A stretch of 32,000 bases of DNA, taken from positions 70,444 through 102,443 of the forward strand of contig PQXB01000001.1 in assembly GCA_003194425.1 (NCBI GenBank), written 5' to 3'. Both the position numbers and the translations under genes were made by a program. Under the pieces are notes generated by a model. The model was given only the letters and a program-made list of their open reading frames with translations. It made no database searches and was not told where the DNA came from. Of the stretch, positions 4,358-30,578 are shown in pieces; position 1 is the stretch's first letter, and each line of letters begins with the position of its first letter. The DNA is from Candidatus Methanophagaceae archaeon. Lineage in GTDB: Archaea > Halobacteriota > Syntropharchaeia > Alkanophagales > Methanospirareceae.

Positions 4358-6217
4358 ATGAAGGCAGAAGCAAACGAGAGCGGGATGCGAAGGAGAGAAA
4401 GAACGAAGCGGGTGCTCGTAACAGACCACATTTCAGAGGAAGGGATAAAAAAGCTGCGGGAGTTTGCGGAAGTTGATGTTGAGTTGGGCTTGAGTGAGGC
4501 GGAGTTAAAGGAGCGTCTTGCAGGCTCAGGGGCGGGCTACGACGCGTTAATCGTGCGAAGCGGCACGCAGGTGACGAAAGAAGTAGTGGAGGCGGGGGTA
4601 GGAGCAGGAGAGACGGGTGCCGCCTCCAAATTAAAAATTATCGGCAGGGCGGGCGTCGGCGTGGACAACATTGATGTGGCGACCGCGACCGAGAAGGGGG
4701 TGCTTGTTGTGAATACGCCCGAGGCGAACAGTGTCTCTGCAGCCGAGCACACGATCGCAATGCTGCTCGCTTTAGCACGGAAAATACCGGCTGCGAACGC
4801 GTCGCTGAAATCCGGGGCGTGGGAGCGGAAAAAGCACACGGGCGTTGAGGTGCAGGGCAAGGTGCTTGGAATAATCGGGTTGGGCAGAGTCGGGAGCGAG
4901 GTAGCGAAGCGGGCGGGTGCGGGGGGGCTCGGGATGAGAATCGTTGCTTACGACCCGTTTGTCTCGTTGGAGCGGGCGAGGGAGCTTGGAATTTCTCTCT
5001 TGGGCTTTGACGAGGTTTTTCCTGTCGCTGATTTTTTGACCGTGCACACACCGCTCACGAAGGACACGAGGCACCTCGTCGGTGCGAGGGAGTTCGGGCT
5101 GATGAAAAACGGCGTTCAGGTCGTGAATTGTGCTCGTGGCGGGATAATTGACGAGGCTGCGCTGCTGGACGCGATAAAGAGCGGAAAAGTGGCAGGAGCG
5201 GCGTTGGATGTCTTCGAGAGCGAGCCTCCCGCTGCTACTGCCACTGCCGGCGACGAGGTCGAGGCAGAGCTGCTGGGGCTGGACGAAGTGGTTGCAACTC
5301 CGCACCTTGGTGCCTCCACCGAAGAGGCGCAGAGGACGGCGGCGGTTGCGATTGCGGAGGAGGTGAGGACGGCGTTGGAGGGCAAGCCTGTGCGGAACGC
5401 CGTGAATATGGTTTATGTTGAGGAGGAGTTGCTGGAGGGGCTGAAGCCGTGGTTGGTCTTGGCAGAGAAACTCGGGGGGCTCTCTGCGCAGCTCGTCCCA
5501 ATCGTCTCAAAATCGAGCAGAATTGAAATTGAAGAGTTCAAAATTTCTTACGAGGGCGAAATAGCAGCGGCAGGAAGGGGCAGGGGGACGAGATTGCTAA
5601 CCGTAGCCGTGCTGAAGAGCTTCCTCTCGTGGTTCGCAGACGGCGTTAATTTTGTGAACGCCGAGGCGGTAGCGAGGAAATTCGGGATAAAAGTTACGGA
5701 GAGCAAGACCGCTGGTGGAGGTGGAGGCGTTGAGAATTTCTCGTCGCTGGTCAGCCTTACAACGACTACGCGGACAGCACGGACAGCAACGACTACGCGG
5801 ACAGCACGGACAGCAACGACTACACGAACAGCACGGACAGCAGCGGCGAAGGGGACAGCGACGGCGACAGGGAATGGGAAAGAAAAGAAGACCGTTGCAG
5901 GCACGCTCTTCGGAAGAGGAGGGGGAGGGGGGAGAGACGAGCCGAGAGTAGTAGAAATAGACGGGTTCAGGGTGGACGCAATCCCGTCTGGCTACTTACT
6001 CGTCTGCGGTTTCCTCGACAAGCCGCGAGTCATCGGACCTGTCTGCACGGTTCTGGGCGACGAGGGAGTAAACATCGCAGGAATGCAAGTCGGCAGGGAG
6101 AACGCAGGCGGCGAGGCAGTGATGGTTCTAAATGTGGACAGCCCCGTCGGCGAGGAGACGATAAAAAAGATAAAAAAGGTGAAGAATATTTTTGATGTAA
6201 GGCTGGTAAAGCTGTGA
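4358..6217 (+). CDS. serA: D-3-phosphoglycerate dehydrogenase with C-terminal ACT-like regulatory domain
   Basis: Motifs GRAGVGVDNID, GIIGLGRVGSEVA (NAD-binding), NCARGG and ATPHLGAST. C-terminal ACT-like segment LVCGFLDKPRVIGPVCTVLGDEGVNIAGMQVGR. An alternative ATG at 4385 is possible. It contains TTTRTARTA x3 from a 27-bp repeat. Confidence 0.9.
   Translation: MKAEANESGMRRRERTKRVLVTDHISEEGIKKLREFAEVDVELGLSEAELKERLAGSGAGYDALIVRSGTQVTKEVVEAGVGAGETGAASKLKIIGRAGVGVDNIDVATATEKGVLVVNTPEANSVSAAEHTIAMLLALARKIPAANASLKSGAWERKKHTGVEVQGKVLGIIGLGRVGSEVAKRAGAGGLGMRIVAYDPFVSLERARELGISLLGFDEVFPVADFLTVHTPLTKDTRHLVGAREFGLMKNGVQVVNCARGGIIDEAALLDAIKSGKVAGAALDVFESEPPAATATAGDEVEAELLGLDEVVATPHLGASTEEAQRTAAVAIAEEVRTALEGKPVRNAVNMVYVEEELLEGLKPWLVLAEKLGGLSAQLVPIVSKSSRIEIEEFKISYEGEIAAAGRGRGTRLLTVAVLKSFLSWFADGVNFVNAEAVARKFGIKVTESKTAGGGGGVENFSSLVSLTTTTRTARTATTTRTARTATTTRTARTAAAKGTATATGNGKEKKTVAGTLFGRGGGGGRDEPRVVEIDGFRVDAIPSGYLLVCGFLDKPRVIGPVCTVLGDEGVNIAGMQVGRENAGGEAVMVLNVDSPVGEETIKKIKKVKNIFDVRLVKL
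5762..5842 (+). repeat. 27-bp tandem repeat x3 inside serA
   Basis: acgactacgcggacagcacggacagca at 5762-5788 and 5789-5815 are identical. The copy at 5816-5842 has 2 substitutions. The repeat encodes TTTRTARTA x3 between the catalytic and ACT regions. Confidence 0.9.
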
Positions 6218-8050: not shown

Positions 8051-8781
8051 AAGTTGTAATTTCGTTGAGTGGTCTTTTTTTTGAGGACGCAGAGGGCGTG
8101 AAAAAAGTCGCAGCGGTCTTAGAGGAGCTTGCAAAGTCGCACGCACTGTTCGTGGTCGTCGGCGGCGGTGCGAAGGCGCGGGAGTGCATAAAAATAGCAC
8201 GCGAGTTGGGTGCGAACGAAGTCGCTTGCGACTACCTTGGAATTGCAGTAACGCGAATAAACGCGAGGCTGCTTGTCTTGGCTTTAGGTGGCGAGGCTGC
8301 GTGCCCCGAAGTTTTCTCGGACTACGAGGCAGTAGAGAAGGCAGAAGCAAAAACAGAGAGAGGCGGAGGGAAAAGTGGAGGGAAAGGTGGAGGGAAAAAT
8401 GGAGGGAAAAATGGAGGGAAAATAGCGGTGATGGGTGGCGTGAGCCCGGGCTACACGACCGACGCGGTGGCTGCGATTCTCGCCGAATACCTGAACGCCG
8501 ACCTGCTCGTTGACGCGACTTCGGTGGACGGAGTCTACGACGCCGACCCTCGCAAGAACCCGGGGGCGAAGAAATACGAGCGGCTCACTGCGAAGGAACT
8601 CGTAGCCCTGACTGGGAAAGAGGAGTTGAAAGCAGGCTCGAGGATTGTCATTGACCCCGTTGCAGCGAAGATAATCGAGAGAAGCGGGATAAAAACATTC
8701 GTGCTTGACGGACGCGAGCCGCGCAATATTTTTGACGCCGTTCAACTCGGGAAGCATCGAGGCACAGAAATAACGCAGTAA
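8047..8781 (+). CDS. pyrH: Uridylate (UMP) kinase, archaeal type
   Basis: Motifs VISLSG, VVVGGGAKAR, GIAVTRINARLL, GGVSPGYTTDAVAA and ATSVDGVYDADPRKNP. The ATG overlaps the crotonase stop (ATGA at 8047-8050). It contains the GGKSGGKGGGKNGGKNGGK insertion. Confidence 0.9.
   Translation: MKVVISLSGLFFEDAEGVKKVAAVLEELAKSHALFVVVGGGAKARECIKIARELGANEVACDYLGIAVTRINARLLVLALGGEAACPEVFSDYEAVEKAEAKTERGGGKSGGKGGGKNGGKNGGKIAVMGGVSPGYTTDAVAAILAEYLNADLLVDATSVDGVYDADPRKNPGAKKYERLTAKELVALTGKEELKAGSRIVIDPVAAKIIERSGIKTFVLDGREPRNIFDAVQLGKHRGTEITQ
8365..8423 (+). repeat. 12-bp tandem repeat x~5 inside pyrH
   Basis: Units ggagggaaaaNN start at 8365, 8377, 8389, 8401 and 8413. The units at 8389 and 8401 are identical. 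Confidence 0.9.
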
Positions 8782-9411: not shown

Positions 9412-10679
9412 TTCTCCAAATCCTGCAGCCTGACATTCTCGTCCGCCCCGTGAGCGTTGCTCTCCACCGAACTGCCGACGCCGAACGCACAGACCGGCTG
9501 CCCCGTCTTCTGCACGGCGTAGCCGACATCCAAACCACCCTGCACGCCTATTATTTCTTTTTGGACGCCGAAGGAGTTAGACGCCGCAGCCTGCACACGC
9601 TTTACCCAGTCTTCGTCGGGATCAGTAAACATCGGCGGGAATCCGGGCTCGCAACGCAGTTCCAACTCAAGCCCGTGCCTTCTCCTTATGTTTTCTACCG
9701 CCTCCTCAAACTCCTGCACCACCACCTCTACCCGCTCCTCTGGAATGTACCGACGGTCGCCACGCAAGGTGCAACTCGCTGGAATAATATTCTCTTTCAC
9801 TCCCCCACTAACCATCGTAACATTAAAGACCGCGGTCGTGTGCCGCCTGCCCGTCAGCTCGGACATTCGAGGACTACACGCCGCTCTCGACTCCCTGCTC
9901 TCCACCTTCTTTTTCAAGCTCGCTAACTCGCCAATCACGAGCCCCGCTGCTTCTACCGCGTTCACCCCCAAGAACGGAACCGAGCTGTGGCACGACTGCC
10001 CGCACACTTTCAACTCCCAGTTCAGCACCCCGTCGGTCGCCACGCAGACGCCCTCGTTGTCTCCGTCCATGCAGAGCAAAAAATCGCCCTGAAGCAGCCC
10101 CTCGTCCGCGAAGTAGCAGAGCCCCGAGTAAAGCCCCAACTCCTCATCCGTTGTCAACGCGACCCGAATGTTGTACCTGCTCTCCAACCCTCGCTCTTTC
10201 ATTTTGTTTAGGGCAGTCAAAAGCGCTGCAACCGCTCCCTTCGAATCCGCAACGCCTCGCCCGTAGACCCTCCCGTCTTTTACCACTGGCTCAGCGGGGA
10301 ACGGAGGCGTGCTCCAACCCTCTCCTGCGGGAACAACATCCAAGTGCGTGTAAATTACAACCGTCTCTGCCACGCCGAAATCTTTAGTAGCGAGCAGATT
10401 CACCCTCGCACCGCTCAACTCCGCGGTCTTTTGCCGCTCTTTAAAGACTGCCTCTGGCATTTCTACCCGCTCACACTCGAACCCGAAGCCCTCAAAAATC
10501 GGAACAAGCCAGTCCACAATCTCTCCGTAATTCTCACCCGGCGGCACGAAAGTCGGCACCTTTACCAACGCCTTGAGGTAGCCCAAAATCTCCTCCTCTG
10601 CTCCTCTTTCTCTTCCTCTTCCTCCTTCTCTTCCTCCTTCTCTTCCTCCTTCTCTTCCTCTCCTTCTCTCTTCCGTCAT
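9363..10679 (-). CDS. M20-family metallopeptidase (ArgE/DapE/acetylornithine deacetylase-like)
   Basis: Motifs THLDVVP, GRGVADSKG and TTDEELG. ATG at 10679 (MTEE); the track start at 10697 is a TTG. The N-terminus carries GREGGREGGREGGRG from a 12-bp repeat at 10608-10661. Confidence 0.8.
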   Translation of the reverse strand: MTEERRRGREGGREGGREGGRGRERGAEEEILGYLKALVKVPTFVPPGENYGEIVDWLVPIFEGFGFECERVEMPEAVFKERQKTAELSGARVNLLATKDFGVAETVVIYTHLDVVPAGEGWSTPPFPAEPVVKDGRVYGRGVADSKGAVAALLTALNKMKERGLESRYNIRVALTTDEELGLYSGLCYFADEGLLQGDFLLCMDGDNEGVCVATDGVLNWELKVCGQSCHSSVPFLGVNAVEAAGLVIGELASLKKKVESRESRAACSPRMSELTGRRHTTAVFNVTMVSGGVKENIIPASCTLRGDRRYIPEERVEVVVQEFEEAVENIRRRHGLELELRCEPGFPPMFTDPDEDWVKRVQAAASNSFGVQKEIIGVQGGLDVGYAVQKTGQPVCAFGVGSSVESNAHGADENVRLQDLENYVRFLVRLLGSTSTK

Positions 10680-10712: not shown

Positions 10713-11456
10713 ATGCCAAAGAAATTCAGCTGCGTGGCGGTTGGCTGGGACTACGCCTACGACCTCTGCAGGGACGTGAGAGAGGAAATGCGGAAGGCGG
10801 GGTTCGTGCCTGAGGTCGTGGTTGGAGTAGCGAGGGGGGGGTGGTATTTGGCGCGGGTTCTCTGCGACTTCTTTCTGCTCAAGGATTTGGTCAGCCTGAA
10901 GACCGAGCACTGGGGACTTACTGCGACGGTTACAGGGGCGGCGGAGATGAAATTCGGGCTCGACGACGCAGCGAAGCAGAAAATACGCGGTCGGAGAGTG
11001 CTGGTTGCAGACGACGTGACCGACACCGGAGACAGCGTAAAACTTGTGGTTGAGTATTTGGAATCTCGGGAGGTCGGAGCAGGAGCAAAGGAGGTGAGAA
11101 CCGCGGTTCTGCACCACAAAACCTCCTCCCCGTTTGTTCCCGACTTTTACGGCGAGCTGGTGAAGGACTGGAAGTGGGTGGTTTACCCTTGGAGCGTGCA
11201 CGAGGACTTGATGGATTTGGTGGCGAAGGTGGTTTCAAAATCAACCGAGAGGATGAGTTTGTCGGAAATCCGGGCAGCTCTGAAGCAGGAATTTGACTTT
11301 TACGTGCCGTTCCACTTGTTGCGGGAGGTTCTTGAAAATATGCAGTTTCACGGAAAGATAAAAATAAAAAAGGAAAAGGAGGAAAAGGAGGAGGGGGAAG
11401 GAGAGGGAGGAGCGGGAGGAGGAGGGAGAGGTAAGGAGGTGTGGTTGCTGCGTTAA
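10713..11456 (+). CDS. Purine phosphoribosyltransferase (archaeal hypoxanthine/guanine PRT-like)
   Basis: PRPP-binding loop VLVADDVTDTGDS, VVGVARGGW and WVVYPW. I place the start at ATG 10713 (MPKKF). The 5' part of the track ORF (10344-10712) is antisense to the M20 gene. The tail is GA-rich (EKEEKEEGEGEGGAGGGGRG). Confidence 0.8.
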   Translation: MPKKFSCVAVGWDYAYDLCRDVREEMRKAGFVPEVVVGVARGGWYLARVLCDFFLLKDLVSLKTEHWGLTATVTGAAEMKFGLDDAAKQKIRGRRVLVADDVTDTGDSVKLVVEYLESREVGAGAKEVRTAVLHHKTSSPFVPDFYGELVKDWKWVVYPWSVHEDLMDLVAKVVSKSTERMSLSEIRAALKQEFDFYVPFHLLREVLENMQFHGKIKIKKEKEEKEEGEGEGGAGGGGRGKEVWLLR

Positions 11457-11475: not shown

Positions 11476-12756
11476 CTATCCAGACCACTTTACTTCTCGC
11501 CATTCAATCTCGTGTTGACCCAAACTATCCATTATTTTCTGTGGAACGACAGGTGCGACAAGAACCGTCCTAACTTCTTCACGACCAATCTTCTTCTTTA
11601 GGTCTTCTCGGTATTTCAAAAGCTGACCTACCACATCTGAATTTGGCTTAGGATACTTCAACTCCAAAATCATCTCTCTTCCCTCCTTGTCCCTACTCAA
11701 AATATCTATTCTCCCGCTCGGCACTGCGTACTCCTCATCCACAACAATCAGTCCTTCTTCAACAACTCCAATATTTTCTCTGATGTATTTTTGATAATCT
11801 CGCTCTACCCTCTTCTTGCTGTACTCTTCCAACTGTTCCCGCAACCACTCGAGGTCCTTCGTGTACTCCAGCAACCAAAGATGCTCTGGGCTTAGGTTGT
11901 AGCAAAATATATTTTTCGTCTCCACAAAACCTCGCTCTCGTAGTCTTCCCAGGAACTTCCTGCCCTCGCCGATTGGAATTCCCTCTCTTCTCAGAGCCTC
12001 TTCCTCCACGTCTGGAGCGAGCCCACCACCGCGCATTAAAAGATGGACCAGCTTACACTGCCAAAGAAGCACTCTCGGACTGGGGTTAAAAAGAGTAGAG
12101 ATTTTTTCGATTCTCTCTTCTACATCCATTCGCCCGCCTAACTTCTCCACCGCCTCCTTCAGCCTTTTAAAATCTTTATTAGCGACAGAGTGTAATTTAA
12201 CGGTCTCTTTTGCAATCTCTTCCGCCCTCTCTTCCGCGAGTTTGACCGTTCTGCTCTCTCTGCTCTTATTCTCTTCGCTCAAATGTCTCGAAGTAGCCTG
12301 CAATTTACGATCATTTTCCTCCTCAATTTCCTTCCTCATTTTCTCCGGATCCACCCGCTCGACAATCCTCACCAAGTCGTTGATTCTGCTCTCAGTCTTC
12401 TCTTCCACGCGTTTAAGACTCTCATTTGTCGAAGTTGAAAGCACAGAAAAGTCTTCCCTGATCTTCTCCGGCTCCATTCGCTCGACAATCCTCACCAAGT
12501 CGTTGATTCTGCTCTCAGTCTTCTCTTCCACGCGTTTAAGACCCTCATTTGTCGAAGTTGAAAGCACAGAAAAGTCTTCCCTGATCTTCTCCGGCTCCAT
12601 TCGCTCGACATTTCTCATCAAGTCGTTAATCCTGCTCTCGGTTCCCTCGGTCTTCTCTTCCACGCGCTTAAGCTCCCCCCTTAGAAGAAAATAAATTACG
12701 GCGCCGACGCTTACAGAGAGGAAAACAGCGACAGCAGCAACAGCAGCGTCGCTCAT
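11476..12756 (-). CDS. Membrane-anchored coiled-coil protein with C-terminal NucS/DUF91-like PD-(D/E)xK nuclease domain
   Basis: N-terminal hydrophobic helix AAVAAVAVFLSVSVGAVIYFLL followed by basic residues. Then ~2.6 copies of a 41-aa repeat and a charged helical region. A possible wHTH follows (GRKFLGRLRERGFVE). The C-terminus reads SGRIDILSRDKEGREMILELKY...VGQLLKY...VRTVLVA, i.e. D, ExK and QxxxY. The ATG lies 11 bp after the mch stop. GC is lower than in the flanking genes. Confidence 0.75.
   Translation of the reverse strand: MSDAAVAAVAVFLSVSVGAVIYFLLRGELKRVEEKTEGTESRINDLMRNVERMEPEKIREDFSVLSTSTNEGLKRVEEKTESRINDLVRIVERMEPEKIREDFSVLSTSTNESLKRVEEKTESRINDLVRIVERVDPEKMRKEIEEENDRKLQATSRHLSEENKSRESRTVKLAEERAEEIAKETVKLHSVANKDFKRLKEAVEKLGGRMDVEERIEKISTLFNPSPRVLLWQCKLVHLLMRGGGLAPDVEEEALRREGIPIGEGRKFLGRLRERGFVETKNIFCYNLSPEHLWLLEYTKDLEWLREQLEEYSKKRVERDYQKYIRENIGVVEEGLIVVDEEYAVPSGRIDILSRDKEGREMILELKYPKPNSDVVGQLLKYREDLKKKIGREEVRTVLVAPVVPQKIMDSLGQHEIEWREVKWSG
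12340..12672 (-). repeat. 123-bp tandem repeat, ~2.6 copies, inside the nuclease-domain gene
   Basis: Units 12358-12480 and 12481-12603 differ at a single base (aagactctc versus aagaccctc). Diverged partial copies lie at 12340-12357 and 12604-12672. 123 bp equals 41 codons. Confidence 0.95.
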
Positions 12757-12767
12757 TTTACAGTTTC

Positions 12768-13748
12768 TTACACCGTCTCTACCCCGAACGACTCCAGAAG
12801 CACCTCCGGATTTATCCGACCGCTCGTGAATGTCTTCCCGCTGTTCAGCTCGTTCACCGTGATTTCCGCGGGTGCGAACATTCCTGCGTCCACTTTGAAG
12901 AAGTCGAAGCCCGCTTCCTTGAAGGTGGTGTAGAACGGTTTTCCGTAGTCCCTCGAGTTCAGCGACGGCACACTCTTCACGAACTCCTTCAACTCCGCCA
13001 AGCCCTCGTTTCCGTCTCTGTTCCCGTAGTCCACTGCGTAGTACATCCGACCGCAGTAAATGATGCAGTCATTCGTCGAGCCCATACATTTCACATCGTC
13101 GCCAACGACAGGCGAGATTGGAATTATGCCGTGCCCGTGTTTTATCGTGTTAATGTCGAAGTCCAGCGACTCGAGTTTGTGAATCCCTGTCTCGATGCCT
13201 CTCGCGGAAATCTGCACCGACCCGGCAACCGAAGCGGTCGGCACGACAACGATGTAAAGGTCTTCCGGCTCTACACGGCAGTCCGCTGCAATTTTCGCCG
13301 TTACCTCCTCGTCAGGCAGTGCGTCGCTCTCCAGCACCAAGACCGCCTCGTCCGCCTCGTCTGCGTACATTATTTTGTCGTAAAGTTCGCGTGGGTTCAG
13401 CGAAAGCGCCCTCGCAGGTCCCGAGCCCATTCCGAAATATTTCTTCACCTTCACCCGCCAGCCCGCGAACTGCGACGCCATGCACGCGAGTACAGGGTAG
13501 TCGGTGCTAAGTTCCACTGCGGGCACTACCAATTTACCGAGGTCAAAAGTAGTGAGTCTAATGTCCGCAAGGTCTGCCATGCAGATTCTCGCCACGCACA
13601 GCCCTGCCTCAAATCCGCCTTCCTCTTCCACGCCCGCGTCAATTACCGTCGTCCCGTTCTCAAACTCCGAAATCCCGACTTGCAACTCCTCCGAATTGTC
13701 CAGCATCTCCTCAAACACGCCTAATCCATATTCATTCACACTTATCAT
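12768..13748 (-). CDS. mch: Methenyltetrahydromethanopterin cyclohydrolase
   Basis: ISVNEYGL...[11 protein letters not shown]...GGFEAGL...[11 protein letters not shown]...[10 protein letters not shown]...[16 protein letters not shown] read as Mch. ATG at 13748 follows GGAAGGAGAG. The track's 27-codon extension covers a duplicated promoter motif. Confidence 0.9.
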
Positions 13749-13880
13749 TTTTTTCTCTCCTTCCCCTTCAAACACCTTTCTCTTCAAACGCACTACTCCT
13801 TTAAAAACTACTCCTTTAAAAAGATGCAAGACAAATCAAAATTGAATAAAAACTATTTAAATTATTTGGTGTTTGGCGCG
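13749..13880. promoter_or_regulatory. Divergent promoter region between mch and the Cas4-like gene, containing a duplicated TATA-like 15-mer
   Basis: ctactcctttaaaaa occurs twice in tandem (13793-13807 and 13808-13822); on the mch strand it reads tttttaaaggagtag. ctatttaaatta at about 13852-13863 lies ~25 nt upstream of ATG 13881, which suggests a leaderless transcript. Confidence 0.5.
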
Positions 13881-14810
13881 ATGACGCAAGACAAACAAGT
13901 CAGACCAGTCAAGATAAAAGTCTCCGATTTAACGCGATATTTTATCTGTCCTCGCCTGGTTTATTTCAGTGCAAGAGGAGAAGAAGAGGCGGAAAAACCA
14001 AATGCGAATGCAAATGCGAGGGGAAGAAGGAGAGAACGAAGCGTGATTGAGAATATTTTGCTGAAGGAGCTGGCGTTCAGTTTGAAAGACAAAATATGTG
14101 GGGAAGGAGAAGATGACGAAGGTGTGAAAGAGGTAATTCAAGAAGTCGTTGAGAGTGTGGAATGGTTGTACAAGGAGGAACTGCGGGGCGTGAAGAAGGA
14201 TTTTTTAGAGGAGGTGAAGAGGGATTTTGTCTGCGGGGTGGTAGGTAGCTGGGAGGGAAGTAGCTGGGAGAGAAGTAGCTGGGAGGGAAGTAGCTGGGAG
14301 GGAGGTAGCTGGGAAGAGTGGTGGAGGAGGATAAAAAATATAAGAGGCGAGAGCGAGTTGTTGGAGTTGGAGTGTGCTTTTGGCTGCGAGAGGGAGCATT
14401 TGATGGTCTCGGAGAAGCTGGGGCTGAGTGGCAGCGTGGACAAACTGATACGAGCTGGAGAGGAATTCGTGCCGTGTGTTGTGAAGACGGGCAGGTGTCC
14501 AGAGTACGGGGTCTGGCGGGGCGACAGGATGCAGTTGGCGGCGTACGCGATGCTCGTTGAGGAGGAGTTTGAGACGACGGTGAGACGCGGATTCGTGCAG
14601 TACATAAAAGCCGCGGAGTTCAGGGAGTCGCTGGTAAGAAGGAGGGACAGGGCGCTTGCTCTGCAGATTTTGAGACGAGTGAAGCGGGTAAAAGGGAAGA
14701 GGGCAGTTTTCCCCGAGAAAGGGGAGAACGCACCCTGCGAGAACTGCGTCTTTGAGGAGAAGTGCGAGACGAGAAGGACGCTTCTTTCTAAACTTTTACG
14801 AAAAGGTTAA
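13881..14810 (+). CDS. Cas4-like / DUF83 RecB-family nuclease with 4-Cys Fe-S cluster motif (stand-alone, no CRISPR locus)
   Basis: N-terminal Cys in YFICPRLVYF, GSVDKLI, QLAAYAMLVEE (QxxxY) and C-terminal CENCVFEEKC (Cx2Cx5C). The expected ExK position reads VVK (PCVVKTG). I place the start at ATG 13881. It contains SWEGS x5 from a 15-bp repeat. Confidence 0.7.
   Translation: MTQDKQVRPVKIKVSDLTRYFICPRLVYFSARGEEEAEKPNANANARGRRRERSVIENILLKELAFSLKDKICGEGEDDEGVKEVIQEVVESVEWLYKEELRGVKKDFLEEVKRDFVCGVVGSWEGSSWERSSWEGSSWEGGSWEEWWRRIKNIRGESELLELECAFGCEREHLMVSEKLGLSGSVDKLIRAGEEFVPCVVKTGRCPEYGVWRGDRMQLAAYAMLVEEEFETTVRRGFVQYIKAAEFRESLVRRRDRALALQILRRVKRVKGKRAVFPEKGENAPCENCVFEEKCETRRTLLSKLLRKG
14245..14318 (+). 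repeat. 15-bp tandem repeat x5 inside the Cas4-like gene
   Basis: Units gtagctgggagggaa start at 14245, 14260, 14275, 14290 and 14305, with 1-2 substitutions each. They encode SWEGSSWERSSWEGSSWEGGSWEE. Confidence 0.9.
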
Positions 14811-25628: not shown

Positions 25629-27791
<2,163 letters not shown>

Positions 27792-28208: not shown

Positions 28209-28304
28209 ATTTCCTCTTATGCCTCTTACTTTCCGATAGCCTGTATAAAATGTTTTCGATTTTTTTAGATGCTCTAAAAGTGAGAAGTTCTCATTTTATC
28301 CGTT

Positions 28305-28380
28305 CACCTCACTCCTCTCTTCACCTCACTCCTCTCTTCTCCTCACTCCTCTCTTCTCCTCACTCCTCTCTTCTCCTCAC
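28305..28380. repeat. 17-bp tandem repeat, ~4.5 units, straddling the mtaD stop codon
   Basis: Units cacctcactcctctctt at 28305 and 28322, ctcctcactcctctctt at 28339 and 28356, and a partial unit at 28373-28380. The mtaD stop (rc of tca at 28360-28362) lies in unit 4. The units are purine-rich on the mtaD sense strand. Confidence 0.95.
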
Positions 28381-29758: not shown

Positions 29759-30578
29759 CCTGCCCCAAGAAAATTGCGAAGACGCCACCGAAGAGCGTGG
29801 CTAAAATGTTCACCTGATGCTTGTTCAGTTTTAGCGGGCGTCTGTCCTCAACGCTCGCTCCGAGCAGGCTGTCCACGACGCAGCCTACGAACCCCGAGAA
29901 GATGCAAAATAAAAAAAAACTGTAGTAGGGACCTCCGTCTCCGACGAACGCGAGAGCGGCGAGCGAAATCAAACCCGAGCCGAGCAGAGCAGCGCCGAGA
30001 CCTGCCAGACTGACGCCACCGTTCGTGCCAACAGGAACTTTTTTTAGCGTTGTGATTAGCCTCGGCTCTCCGCCGTCCGCCTGCCCGATTTCTGTTGAAA
30101 ATGTGTCTGCACAGGCGGTAGCGACCGCACCTGAGAAGCCGAGCAGGAAGACGGTCTTTTGAGAGAAGCCGTAAAAAACCGCGAAGACCAGCGGCGACAA
30201 GCCGTTGCCAAGCACATTATTTATGTCTCGCATTCCCTTGCTCCCTCCTCCCTTTCCTCCTCCTCCTCCTCCCTTTCCTCCTCCGCTTTCACCGCCTCCT
30301 CCTCCGCTTTCACCCCCTCCTCCGCCTTCTGCAACGCCGAGCAGTTCTTTCTTCTCGTACTTGTATTTCGTGACCAAGTTCCCAAAGACGAAGAACGCGA
30401 GTAGCAGAAGCAGACCCGCGTAGCCAAACTCGAGCCCCAACGCCAACAAAATCACCACGCCAAGCCCGAGCGTGCCGAGAAACGCGGAGGTGTTTATTTT
30501 GCGTTTTAGGTAAGCGTAAAGCACGAGCGAGAACGCTACCAAGACGGTAAGCCCGGTTAGAGTCGCAGTTTCAAACAT
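29745..30578 (-). CDS. DUF92 / TMEM19-family integral membrane protein (COG1836-like)
   Basis: Multi-pass hydrophobic profile. Conserved-looking blocks are NVLGNGL, ATACADTFSTEIGQ and PVGTNGGVSLAGL. I place the start at ATG 30578 (MFETATL), overlapping the upstream stop by 8 nt (ATGTTTGA). A Gly-rich loop comes from a 21-bp period at 30241-30330. Confidence 0.7.
   Translation of the reverse strand: MFETATLTGLTVLVAFSLVLYAYLKRKINTSAFLGTLGLGVVILLALGLEFGYAGLLLLLAFFVFGNLVTKYKYEKKELLGVAEGGGGGESGGGGGESGGGKGGGGGGKGGGSKGMRDINNVLGNGLSPLVFAVFYGFSQKTVFLLGFSGAVATACADTFSTEIGQADGGEPRLITTLKKVPVGTNGGVSLAGLGAALLGSGLISLAALAFVGDGGPYYSFFLFCIFSGFVGCVVDSLLGASVEDRRPLKLNKHQVNILATLFGGVFAIFLGQVFGM

Follow-up and report, generated by a model that had tools for sequence, protein, structure and literature searches.

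The mismatch-repair endonuclease NucS/EndoMS consists of an N-terminal β-barrel, which dimerises and recognises flipped mismatched bases, a C-terminal catalytic domain, and a C-terminal PIP peptide (PMC8228993); the catalytic domain (NucS-CT) is already known in other architectures (PMC5290159). Inspection of a 32,000-nt stretch of contig PQXB01000001.1 (assembly GCA_003194425.1, Candidatus Methanophagaceae archaeon), hereafter the window, identified a gene at positions 11476–12756 whose product has a C-terminal domain homologous to this catalytic domain, with identical D, ExK and QxxxY motifs. The rest of the protein differs from NucS/EndoMS: it has instead an N-terminal transmembrane (TM) helix, a helical spacer of ~190 aa and a winged helix. 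Further, the gene is a rare accessory one, while NucS/EndoMS is a conserved repair gene. As far as the literature was searched, the combination of a TM helix, a helical spacer, a family-specific winged helix and a NucS_C nuclease domain is undescribed, and the proteins that carry it are mis-named; the single domains, and the idea of a membrane-anchored nuclease, were already known.

A comparable layout is found in SNIPE, an experimentally characterised bacterial membrane-bound anti-phage nuclease that cleaves phage DNA during injection (bioRxiv 10.1101/2025.11.03.685801). In SNIPE an N-out TM helix is followed by a middle domain that binds DNA and by a C-terminal nuclease; sequence and length vary most in its N-terminal region, and a form from which the TM helix has been deleted is toxic via cleavage of host DNA (bioRxiv 10.1101/2025.11.03.685801). 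The window protein is predicted to share with SNIPE a short N-out tail, a single N-terminal TM helix, an elongated cytoplasmic region, a middle domain (here a putative DNA binder) and a C-terminal nuclease. In both cases the nuclease is the best conserved part and the N-terminal region the most variable. The two are not homologous, however. SNIPE combines DUF4041 with a GIY-YIG nuclease, neither of which matched the window protein at Pfam E ≤ 10, whereas the window protein combines a winged helix with a PD-(D/E)xK nuclease of the NucS_C type. In addition, SNIPE is bacterial and its mechanism has been shown experimentally, while the family described here was found on archaeal contigs only and its mechanism is putative. 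We tentatively infer that the gene encodes a membrane-confined DNA endonuclease that acts on incoming DNA, and which would be an archaeal, non-homologous analogue of SNIPE.

Other nuclease systems were also compared. Shedu is a single protein with a C-terminal PD-(D/E)xK nuclease, the closest structural homologue of which is EndoMS; its N-terminal domains are variable, and type 1G includes winged helix domains (Shedu survey). It resembles the window protein in its nuclease fold and in the analogous order of a variable N-terminal part followed by the nuclease. Membership in Shedu was nevertheless rejected: the window protein gave no match to SduA_C/DUF4263 (PF14082) at E ≤ 10, one of 20 relatives did so at E 0.007, and no PADLOC Shedu model was matched. 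The words ‘membrane’ and ‘coiled-coil’ are absent from the text of the Shedu survey. RmuC (PF02646) and COG4741 were predicted in 2005 to be bacterial TM-anchored PD-(D/E)xK proteins; COG4741, which couples a TM helix to a PD-(D/E)xK domain that is minimal and cytosolic, was proposed to guard against foreign DNA being taken up (PMC1189080). The likeness to RmuC is one of layout only (a TM helix at the N-terminus, then a coiled coil, then a PD-(D/E)xK domain). RmuC and COG4741 belong to other PD-(D/E)xK subfamilies (that of RmuC is McrC-like), gave no profile match, and have neither a winged helix nor NucS_C. An earlier, first-pass annotation of the window had noted no described membrane-anchored version of this nuclease with a repeat-built spacer. 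This stands for NucS_C, no description of a membrane-anchored NucS_C protein having been found in the literature, but not for membrane-anchored PD-(D/E)xK nucleases in general. Finally, two candidate single-gene systems in PADLOC have a NucS_C-like nuclease core in common with the window protein. At the domain level, PDC-S11 was matched by 20 of 20 family members (best E-value 5e-9) and PDC-S02 by 16 of 20. The matches cover model positions ~20–94 of 314–379 in PDC-S11, where the nuclease is N-terminal, and ~205–277 of 308 in PDC-S02; the rest of these models is unrelated. No full-length model match was obtained for either system.

Nuclease domain, membrane anchor and winged helix

The first-pass annotation had read the C-terminus as a NucS/DUF91-type nuclease. 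The Pfam scan agreed, with a match to NucS_C at an E-value of 3.1e-20 (72.8 bits, against a cutoff of 24). A phmmer search of the PDB retrieved Pyrococcus abyssi NucS (2vld, 1.9e-10) and Thermococcus kodakarensis EndoMS (5gke, 8.8e-08) with 31–33% identity. An AlphaFold2 (AF2) model was built on a 20-sequence alignment; its mean pLDDT was 78, with residues 210–426 mostly at 88–97 apart from two 10-residue blocks near 80. When this model was compared with the PDB by Foldseek, NucS/EndoMS ranked first (2vld, E 5e-9, rmsd 1.7 Å over 106 columns). The GRIDIL (D351), ILELK (E365, K367) and QLLKY (Q378, Y382) segments aligned with the catalytic motifs of NucS, and all five residues were invariant in the 20 aligned sequences. 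In a larger set of 56 sequences D351 was invariant and E365, K367, Q378 and Y382 were kept in 54. Since overall identity in this set is 20–54%, such retention is the signature of selection for catalysis.

This pattern bears on the reading that the protein is a non-catalytic membrane tether or regulator, in which a degenerate nuclease fold would, together with the winged helix, do no more than bind DNA, for instance so as to hold a chromosome or plasmid at the membrane. The presence of a winged helix would suit such a role, as would the loss of catalytic residues from two divergent relatives, but the retention of the complete set of motif residues in nearly all of the others makes it very unlikely. 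The two exceptions (P0036 and P0041) have no membrane helix; ELK is replaced by CVV or VIA, and the active-site Q and Y are lost. They are apparently soluble, catalytically dead derivatives. That both lack the anchor as well suggests that anchor and activity are coupled.

One family cluster member 99% identical to the window protein is named ‘MAG: endonuclease NucS [Methanophagales archaeon]’ by NCBI, and another family cluster ‘RecB family endonuclease NucS’. These names, together with the good NucS_C match, would be expected of a genuine NucS/EndoMS mismatch-repair endonuclease. However, the NCBIfam NucS equivalog model scored only 88 bits against a cutoff of 216, and aligned over model positions 120–235 of 250 only. 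The NucS N-terminal domain is not present: the PDB alignments began at chain residue ~111–120, and residues 1–220 are all-α in the AF2 model, the β-barrel being replaced by the TM helix and α-helices. Nor is the PIP tail, since the protein ends ...EIEWREVKWSG, four residues past the last strand, while NucS runs on for ~20 residues. The first-pass observation that the N-terminal domain and PCNA-binding tail of canonical NucS are lacking was therefore correct. With these defining domains absent, the database name is an over-annotation, and a true NucS/EndoMS function is scarcely credible. In many relatives the last strand is directly followed by a terminal -E(Y/W)(R/K)EI(P/A/D)F, and in a few the C-terminus is extended and finishes with -GTLPKGF; these C-termini may hold a short peptide that binds a clamp or a partner.

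The Kyte-Doolittle profile of the window protein (19-residue mean) peaks at 2.46 over residues ~4–25, and nowhere else exceeds 1.6. MSD stands ahead of the predicted TM helix, and R26, K30 and R31 come after it; there are 0 K/R on the N-side and 4 in the 15 residues on the C-side. An N-terminal hydrophobic helix was found in 48 of the 56 family sequences (six of the remaining eight look like truncated fragments, and two are the divergent P0036 and P0041). Over flanks of 15 residues, these anchored relatives have on average 0.13 K+R ahead of the helix and 3.6 behind it, and the C-side flank was the richer in K/R in 48 of 48. This bias is a strong positive-inside signal indicative of an N-out/C-in anchor, and argues against a signal peptide. 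The window protein is thus predicted to be a single-pass membrane protein with its N-terminus outside and its nuclease in the cytoplasm, as the first-pass annotation had proposed.

The alternative of a secreted or surface nuclease, equipped with a signal peptide or an N-in anchor and acting on environmental DNA, in nutrient scavenging or in DNA uptake, was weighed against this. The hydrophobic segment does lie at the extreme N-terminus, and COG4741-type TM-nucleases were once considered possible exported toxins (PMC1189080). The n-region (MSD-), however, lacks positive charges, and the relatives have an acidic residue ahead of the helix; the K/R residues that follow the helix are the opposite of a Sec signal peptide; and the helix is 20–25 residues long, with no AxA-type cleavage motif seen. 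Export is accordingly considered highly improbable. The start of the TM helix is itself polymorphic. Codons 1–9 of the gene (12730–12756) differ in the length of the GCTGCTGTTGCTGCTGTC run from positions 6001–6020 of locus L026, which comes from a second assembly of the same species (GCA_026133975.1); the difference is a 9-bp indel, and alleles of 426 and 427 aa differ by one Val. Immediately ahead of the membrane helix many relatives, but not the window protein, share a conserved (F/L)LQxE motif.

A possible winged-helix segment ahead of the nuclease, noted in the first pass, was recovered in the AF2 model as helices 227–239, 252–257 and 262–274 followed by strands 278–281 and 285–288; a linker helix comes next and then the nuclease fold. 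The pLDDT of this domain was mostly 88–94, with one 10-residue block near 80. Foldseek returned MarR-type winged-helix matches (E ~3e-3, probability 0.99–1.0), and no Pfam helix-turn-helix (HTH) match was found in any of 20 family members. W232, G245, W294 and Y298 were near-invariant in the 56 sequences. The putative recognition helix of the window protein is very basic (GEGRKFLGRLRERG), while the family average is only mildly so. The features of the gene and its neighbours are collected in Table 1.

Table 1. Coordinates (window numbering) of the gene, its predicted parts and the adjacent genes
Feature	Position	Strand	Evidence and remarks
Whole gene, 426 aa: TM anchor, helical spacer, winged helix and NucS_C nuclease	11476..12756	minus	Open reading frame (ORF) list, Pfam and NCBIfam scans, AF2 model
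N-terminal TM helix, residues 4-25 (AAVAAVAVFLSVSVGAVIYFLL), predicted N-out/C-in	12682..12747	minus	Kyte-Doolittle profile and flanking charges
Tandem repeat of 123 bp (41 aa), 2.5 copies, residues ~40-141, within the helical spacer	12334..12639	minus	Tandem Repeats Finder
Non-repeated helical region, residues 142-220, including conserved helix 193-220 (EFxRLK...GG.EE..ER)	12097..12333	minus	AF2 helices 137-188 and 193-220
Predicted winged-helix (wHTH-like) domain, residues 227-288, motifs WQCK and GGLAP(E/D)AEED	11893..12078	minus	AF2, Foldseek
NucS_C (PF01939) PD-(D/E)xK nuclease domain, residues 318-422	11491..11805	minus	Pfam, PDB sequence and fold matches
Predicted catalytic residues	11611..11706	minus	D351 11704-11706; E365 11662-11664; K367 11656-11658; Q378 11623-11625; Y382 11611-11613
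mch (methenyl-H4MPT cyclohydrolase)	12768..13748	minus	PF02289 E 8e-127; directly upstream of the gene; left edge of the insertion
Phosphoribosyltransferase (PRTase), convergent with the gene	10713..11456	plus	PF00156; right edge of the insertion
Cas4-like gene, divergent from mch	13824..14810	plus	PF01930 4e-10; PADLOC Cas4 1.6e-20

The helical spacer and its 123-bp repeat

The spacer had been described in the first pass as ~2.6 copies of a charged 41-aa repeat followed by a further helical region. Tandem Repeats Finder (TRF) detected the array with a 123-bp period, 2.5 copies, 93% matches and a score of 535. In the best register two of the units are identical at 122 of 123 positions, i.e. 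they differ by one base as had been noted, and the first unit contains a 3-aa insertion (GTE). In the AF2 model residues 2–220 are helical, with an interruption at each ‘EPEK’ proline and a pLDDT of about 50–75; the helices extend through the non-repeated region beyond the array, also as anticipated. ‘Coiled coil’ is a reasonable if provisional description of the modelled spacer. Conserved columns in the non-repeated region are A182, E195, F196, L199, G208, E210, E214, R215 and L219. Weak PADLOC matches over residues 36–201 (ZorA, CARF_HEPN and similar) were treated as artefacts of coiled-coil composition, and a 150-aa ORF on the plus strand (12242–12694) was disregarded as a shadow of the repeat on the opposite strand.

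The length of the spacer varies among near-identical sequences. Locus L026 shows an exact in-frame deletion of one 123-bp unit; its only other differences from the window gene are four substitutions and the 9-bp indel, which falls in a GCTGCTGTT run. The 90%-identity cluster that contains the window protein (the representative of its 100%-identical cluster being P0001) has 14 members, 99–100% identical outside the repeat. Six of the 14 are 426 or 427 aa long, while five (385, 386 or 382 aa) have exactly one unit fewer. One of the short alleles, P0179, has a different repeat junction. Among the cluster members a G/S difference swaps between units. The difference of exactly one unit between near-identical strains supports the first-pass proposal that spacer length has changed recently. 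The variation reflects either real recombination between units or, in part, repeat collapse in short-read assemblies.

The repeat is not a trait of the family, as internal repeats were found in only two of 59 relatives. The only other case is an independent 105-bp duplication (1.8 copies, 91% matches) in the spacer of a Nitrosopumilaceae metagenome-assembled genome (MAG; locus L017, CBDBCR010000001.1, positions 9653–9844), which copies a LQPLRGIDPKIQYDVSRID... module. TRF also found about 25 short tandem-repeat arrays in the window, mostly with periods divisible by 3 (6–27 bp; 9, 12, 15, 18, 21 and 27). Examples are those at 5760–5864, 8365–8422, 10604–10660, 11370–11439, 14245–14314, 26224–26283, 28303–28380 and 30244–30329. 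Arrays that could be placed on ORFs fall inside housekeeping genes and give rise to low-complexity inserts, such as GGREGGREGGR in an M20 peptidase, GSSWEGSSWE in the Cas4-like protein and the KEKEEKEEGEGEGG tail on the PRTase. All of these arrays are much shorter than the 123-bp one. The genome seems generally prone to the expansion of coding repeats, and its richness in short in-frame repeats means that the 123-bp repeat may partly reflect a genome-wide tendency.

Insertion site, distribution and neighbourhoods

The gene is a recently inserted accessory gene in its lineage of anaerobic methanotrophic archaea (ANME-1). This was shown by comparing mch–PRTase junctions retrieved in a metagenome scan with mch. 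In the species to which the window belongs (mch 99% identical; loci L026–L028) the gene is present between mch and the convergent PRTase gene. In nine contigs from sister ANME-1 lineages (mch 80–84% identical) the junction is empty and the PRTase gene follows mch directly, after a gap of about 55–170 bp. Homology between the window and the empty sites stops at the mch stop codon (12768) and resumes inside the 3′-end of the PRTase gene. These empty sites and homology breaks identify a lineage-specific insertion of a single gene. It fits tightly between its neighbours: 11 bp separate the mch stop codon (12768–12770) from the ATG (12754–12756), confirming the spacing given in the first pass, and 19 bp separate its stop codon (11476–11478) from that of the PRTase gene. 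The inserted gene has a GC content of 47.1%, compared with 55–56% for the flanking genes and 53.7% for the window, and a GC content at third codon positions of 53% compared with 66–70% for the flanking genes. It is thus more AT-rich than its neighbours, as first described.

The same junction holds a different cassette in two other loci (mch 81–82% identical), L032 (1055–2776) and L037 (3435–3815). The first gene of the cassette encodes a protein of 196 aa with no PADLOC match in L032 (126 aa in L037, whose contig ends inside the gene). The second gene in L032 encodes a 365-aa ABC-type ATPase with a full-length match to PADLOC NsnB (8.9e-20) and further matches to AriA, PD-T4-4_A, AbiLi, PtuA and GajA. 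The slot therefore carries a defence-type cassette elsewhere, and appears to serve ANME-1 as a small hotspot for defence genes or other accessory cargo.

The first-pass annotation had drawn attention to the Cas4-like gene transcribed divergently from mch. It is confirmed in the window (Table 1) but not as a conserved neighbour: no Cas4-like gene was found in the 4–5 kb retrieved upstream of mch in L026 and L028, and linkage to Cas4 was rejected. The absence implies a rearrangement breakpoint 5′ of mch. In L026 the 5 kb upstream of mch contain oxidative-stress genes. Within the window the Cas4-like gene is solitary, with no CRISPR array or other cas genes among the annotated genes. The remainder of the window encodes housekeeping functions (anthranilate synthase, PGDH, TrmO, Ham1, an M20 peptidase, HisD, ribosomal protein L6, PolD and others). 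HdrA-like genes are also present, and together with mch and PolD are consistent with an ANME-1 archaeon, the origin indicated by the Methanophagales name of the cluster member.

A full-length query retrieved one homologue besides the protein itself, the word index having probably been swamped by the charged helical region; with residues 190–426 as the query, 19 homologues were obtained with 34–47% identity (44–47% for the closest), covering 98–100% of these residues. In an exhaustive HMMER search of 1.84 billion cluster representatives, about 22 (50% clustering) covered both the winged helix and the nuclease, while roughly 1000 further representatives matched the NucS_C core only. An alignment-based scan of GTDB species genomes gave 19 loci, all in MAGs of Nitrosopumilaceae or other Nitrososphaerota; a single-protein scan gave 0 loci, and the window's own genome was unlisted, presumably because it is masked or not a species representative. 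In the 56-sequence set, identity to the window protein was 41% in the nuclease, 39% in residues 190–309 and 16% in the spacer. The window protein has the features of this family: a TM helix, a divergent spacer, a winged helix with WQCK and GGLAP(E/D)AEED motifs, and NucS_C, and it can be aligned over ~190–426. Judging by these sequence matches, the family is small, rare and patchy, restricted in the collections searched to archaeal contigs, and found mostly in Nitrosopumilaceae. A frameshift divides the family gene into two ORFs in L024 (9710–10854) and L025 (9617–10376), which points either to pseudogenes or to errors in long-read assembly. A Foldseek search of viral structures gave only generic PD-(D/E)xK matches.

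Clustering of the neighbours across about 20–24 loci revealed no family shared beyond small groups of related genomes, and a fixed multi-gene system was rejected since no operon partner is conserved across loci. Among the 150 nearest neighbours the commonest Pfam assignments were the S and M subunits of type I restriction-modification (R-M) systems, Metallophos, AAA_23, DDE transposases, integrases, HNH, EVE, HerA and NurA. Inside type I R-M loci the gene comes directly downstream of hsdS in L011, L012 and L013; its predecessor in L015 is a DUF4011-helicase-REase_MTES_1575 gene; in L022 it is followed by a DDE transposase; and in L005 Mrr_cat-TPR and PLD genes are nearby. A Rad50-like AAA_23 fragment lies downstream in L002–L004, and L006 has a Metallophos gene. 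In two Nitrosopumilaceae loci the neighbours are NurA-HerA-Mre11-Rad50 genes: in L020 (3343–9697) the family gene is downstream on the same strand, 150 bp past rad50, and in L023 (3861–10205) it is convergent with the rad50 of this operon. The overall picture is that of a variable-region gene, often near R-M or mobile elements and sometimes near repair genes.

The repair neighbours suggest another reading, namely a housekeeping repair or recombination nuclease at the membrane, either RmuC-like or an accessory to Mre11-Rad50/HerA-NurA, whose substrates would be aberrant DNA structures and not foreign DNA. The layout of RmuC is the same (TM 1–25, coiled coil 25–200, then PD-(D/E)xK; PMC1189080). 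NucS_C is a repair nuclease domain in NucS itself, the ANME-1 gene lies in a housekeeping region and probably forms an operon with mch, and the adjacency in L020 and L023 is complemented by the AAA_23 and Metallophos genes of L002–L004 and L006. A repair factor would, however, be expected to be widespread and syntenic, while the family is rare and has no conserved neighbour; the gene is absent from the same locus in sister ANME-1 lineages and has a foreign base composition; no Pfam RmuC match was obtained even at E ≤ 10; and adjacency to Rad50 is seen in only two of ~20 loci. We consider a repair role unlikely, though it deserves to be kept in mind.

The same neighbourhoods, rich in mobile elements and defence genes, could suit a toxic effector of abortive infection or addiction. 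Here the anchor would keep a non-specific nuclease inactive or sequestered until infection or stress releases or activates it to degrade the cell's own DNA, or the nuclease would stabilise the element that carries it. The insertion of a single accessory gene with foreign GC is in keeping with this, as are the lack of a partner for self/non-self discrimination and the toxicity of SNIPE without its TM helix. On the other hand, no protease site, antitoxin or sensor partner was identified, and no transposase, integrase or flanking repeats accompany the ANME-1 insertion. Further, at least 14 assemblies carry the sequence with 99–100% conservation, a sign that it is stably maintained, and this speaks against a toxin. 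This explanation is rather doubtful.

A candidate membrane-confined nuclease for incoming DNA

The interpretation that we tentatively prefer to these alternatives, that of a membrane-confined endonuclease acting on incoming DNA, would work as follows. The protein would span the membrane once, N-out/C-in, with a long cytoplasmic helical stalk leading to the winged helix and then to the NucS_C-type endonuclease. NucS cuts both strands as a dimer that is held together by a domain missing here, so the stalk and/or the winged helix would have to supply oligomerisation in order that two active sites cut both DNA strands. The winged helix may bind DNA or a trigger. The anchor would confine the nuclease to a shell beneath the membrane, in which the DNA of an entering virus, a plasmid or other foreign DNA would be cut while the chromosome stayed largely out of reach. 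The length of the stalk would set the reach, each 41-aa unit adding up to about 6 nm if the helix is continuous. The accessory insertion, the foreign GC content, the defence-type cassette in the same slot, the R-M and mobile neighbours and the rarity of the family were all counted in favour of a role in defence, as were the conserved active site, the uniform bias of the flanking charges, the SNIPE-like pattern of conservation and the related nuclease domains of Shedu and of the PADLOC candidates.

Several observations weigh against this interpretation. The ANME-1 gene has housekeeping genes around it, starts 11 bp past mch and may simply share its transcript. Two thaumarchaeal loci (L020 and L023) abut a repair operon, and since the Nitrosopumilaceae loci are phylogenetically related, the adjacency to R-M genes may represent only one or two events. 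Nor is there a conserved partner for self-protection, such as a methyltransferase. In the family as a whole the winged helix is only mildly basic, and an acidic loop in it is invariant (GGLAP(E/D)AEED); DNA binding by the domain is uncertain on both counts. The PADLOC matches span only ~70 residues (~313–387) of the nuclease core. Finally, a pattern-limited search of IMG/VR viral contigs found no relatives, so there is no direct link to mobile elements on this side. A more specific version of the proposal is that the protein is a constitutive, independently evolved counterpart of SNIPE which discriminates self from foreign DNA by location and not by sequence or modification. Its stalk would serve as a ruler, adjusted in an arms race against viral or other invaders as 41-aa units are added or dropped, a difference seen between co-existing ANME-1 strains. 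We regard this version as improbable.

The bacterial system SNIPE is so far the only one in which a membrane-bound nuclease has been shown to tell self from non-self by location. If the proposal is true, this strategy would have arisen more than once, through a different nuclease fold and a different middle domain. The family would then be a candidate single-gene defence for the uncultured ANME-1 archaea and the ammonia-oxidising Nitrosopumilaceae, both environmentally important groups whose immunity is known mostly from CRISPR and R-M systems. The mch–PRTase slot would be useful for mining further systems in ANME-1. As these proteins do not have the parts of NucS that serve in mismatch repair, they should not be counted when mismatch repair in these lineages is inferred from genomes.

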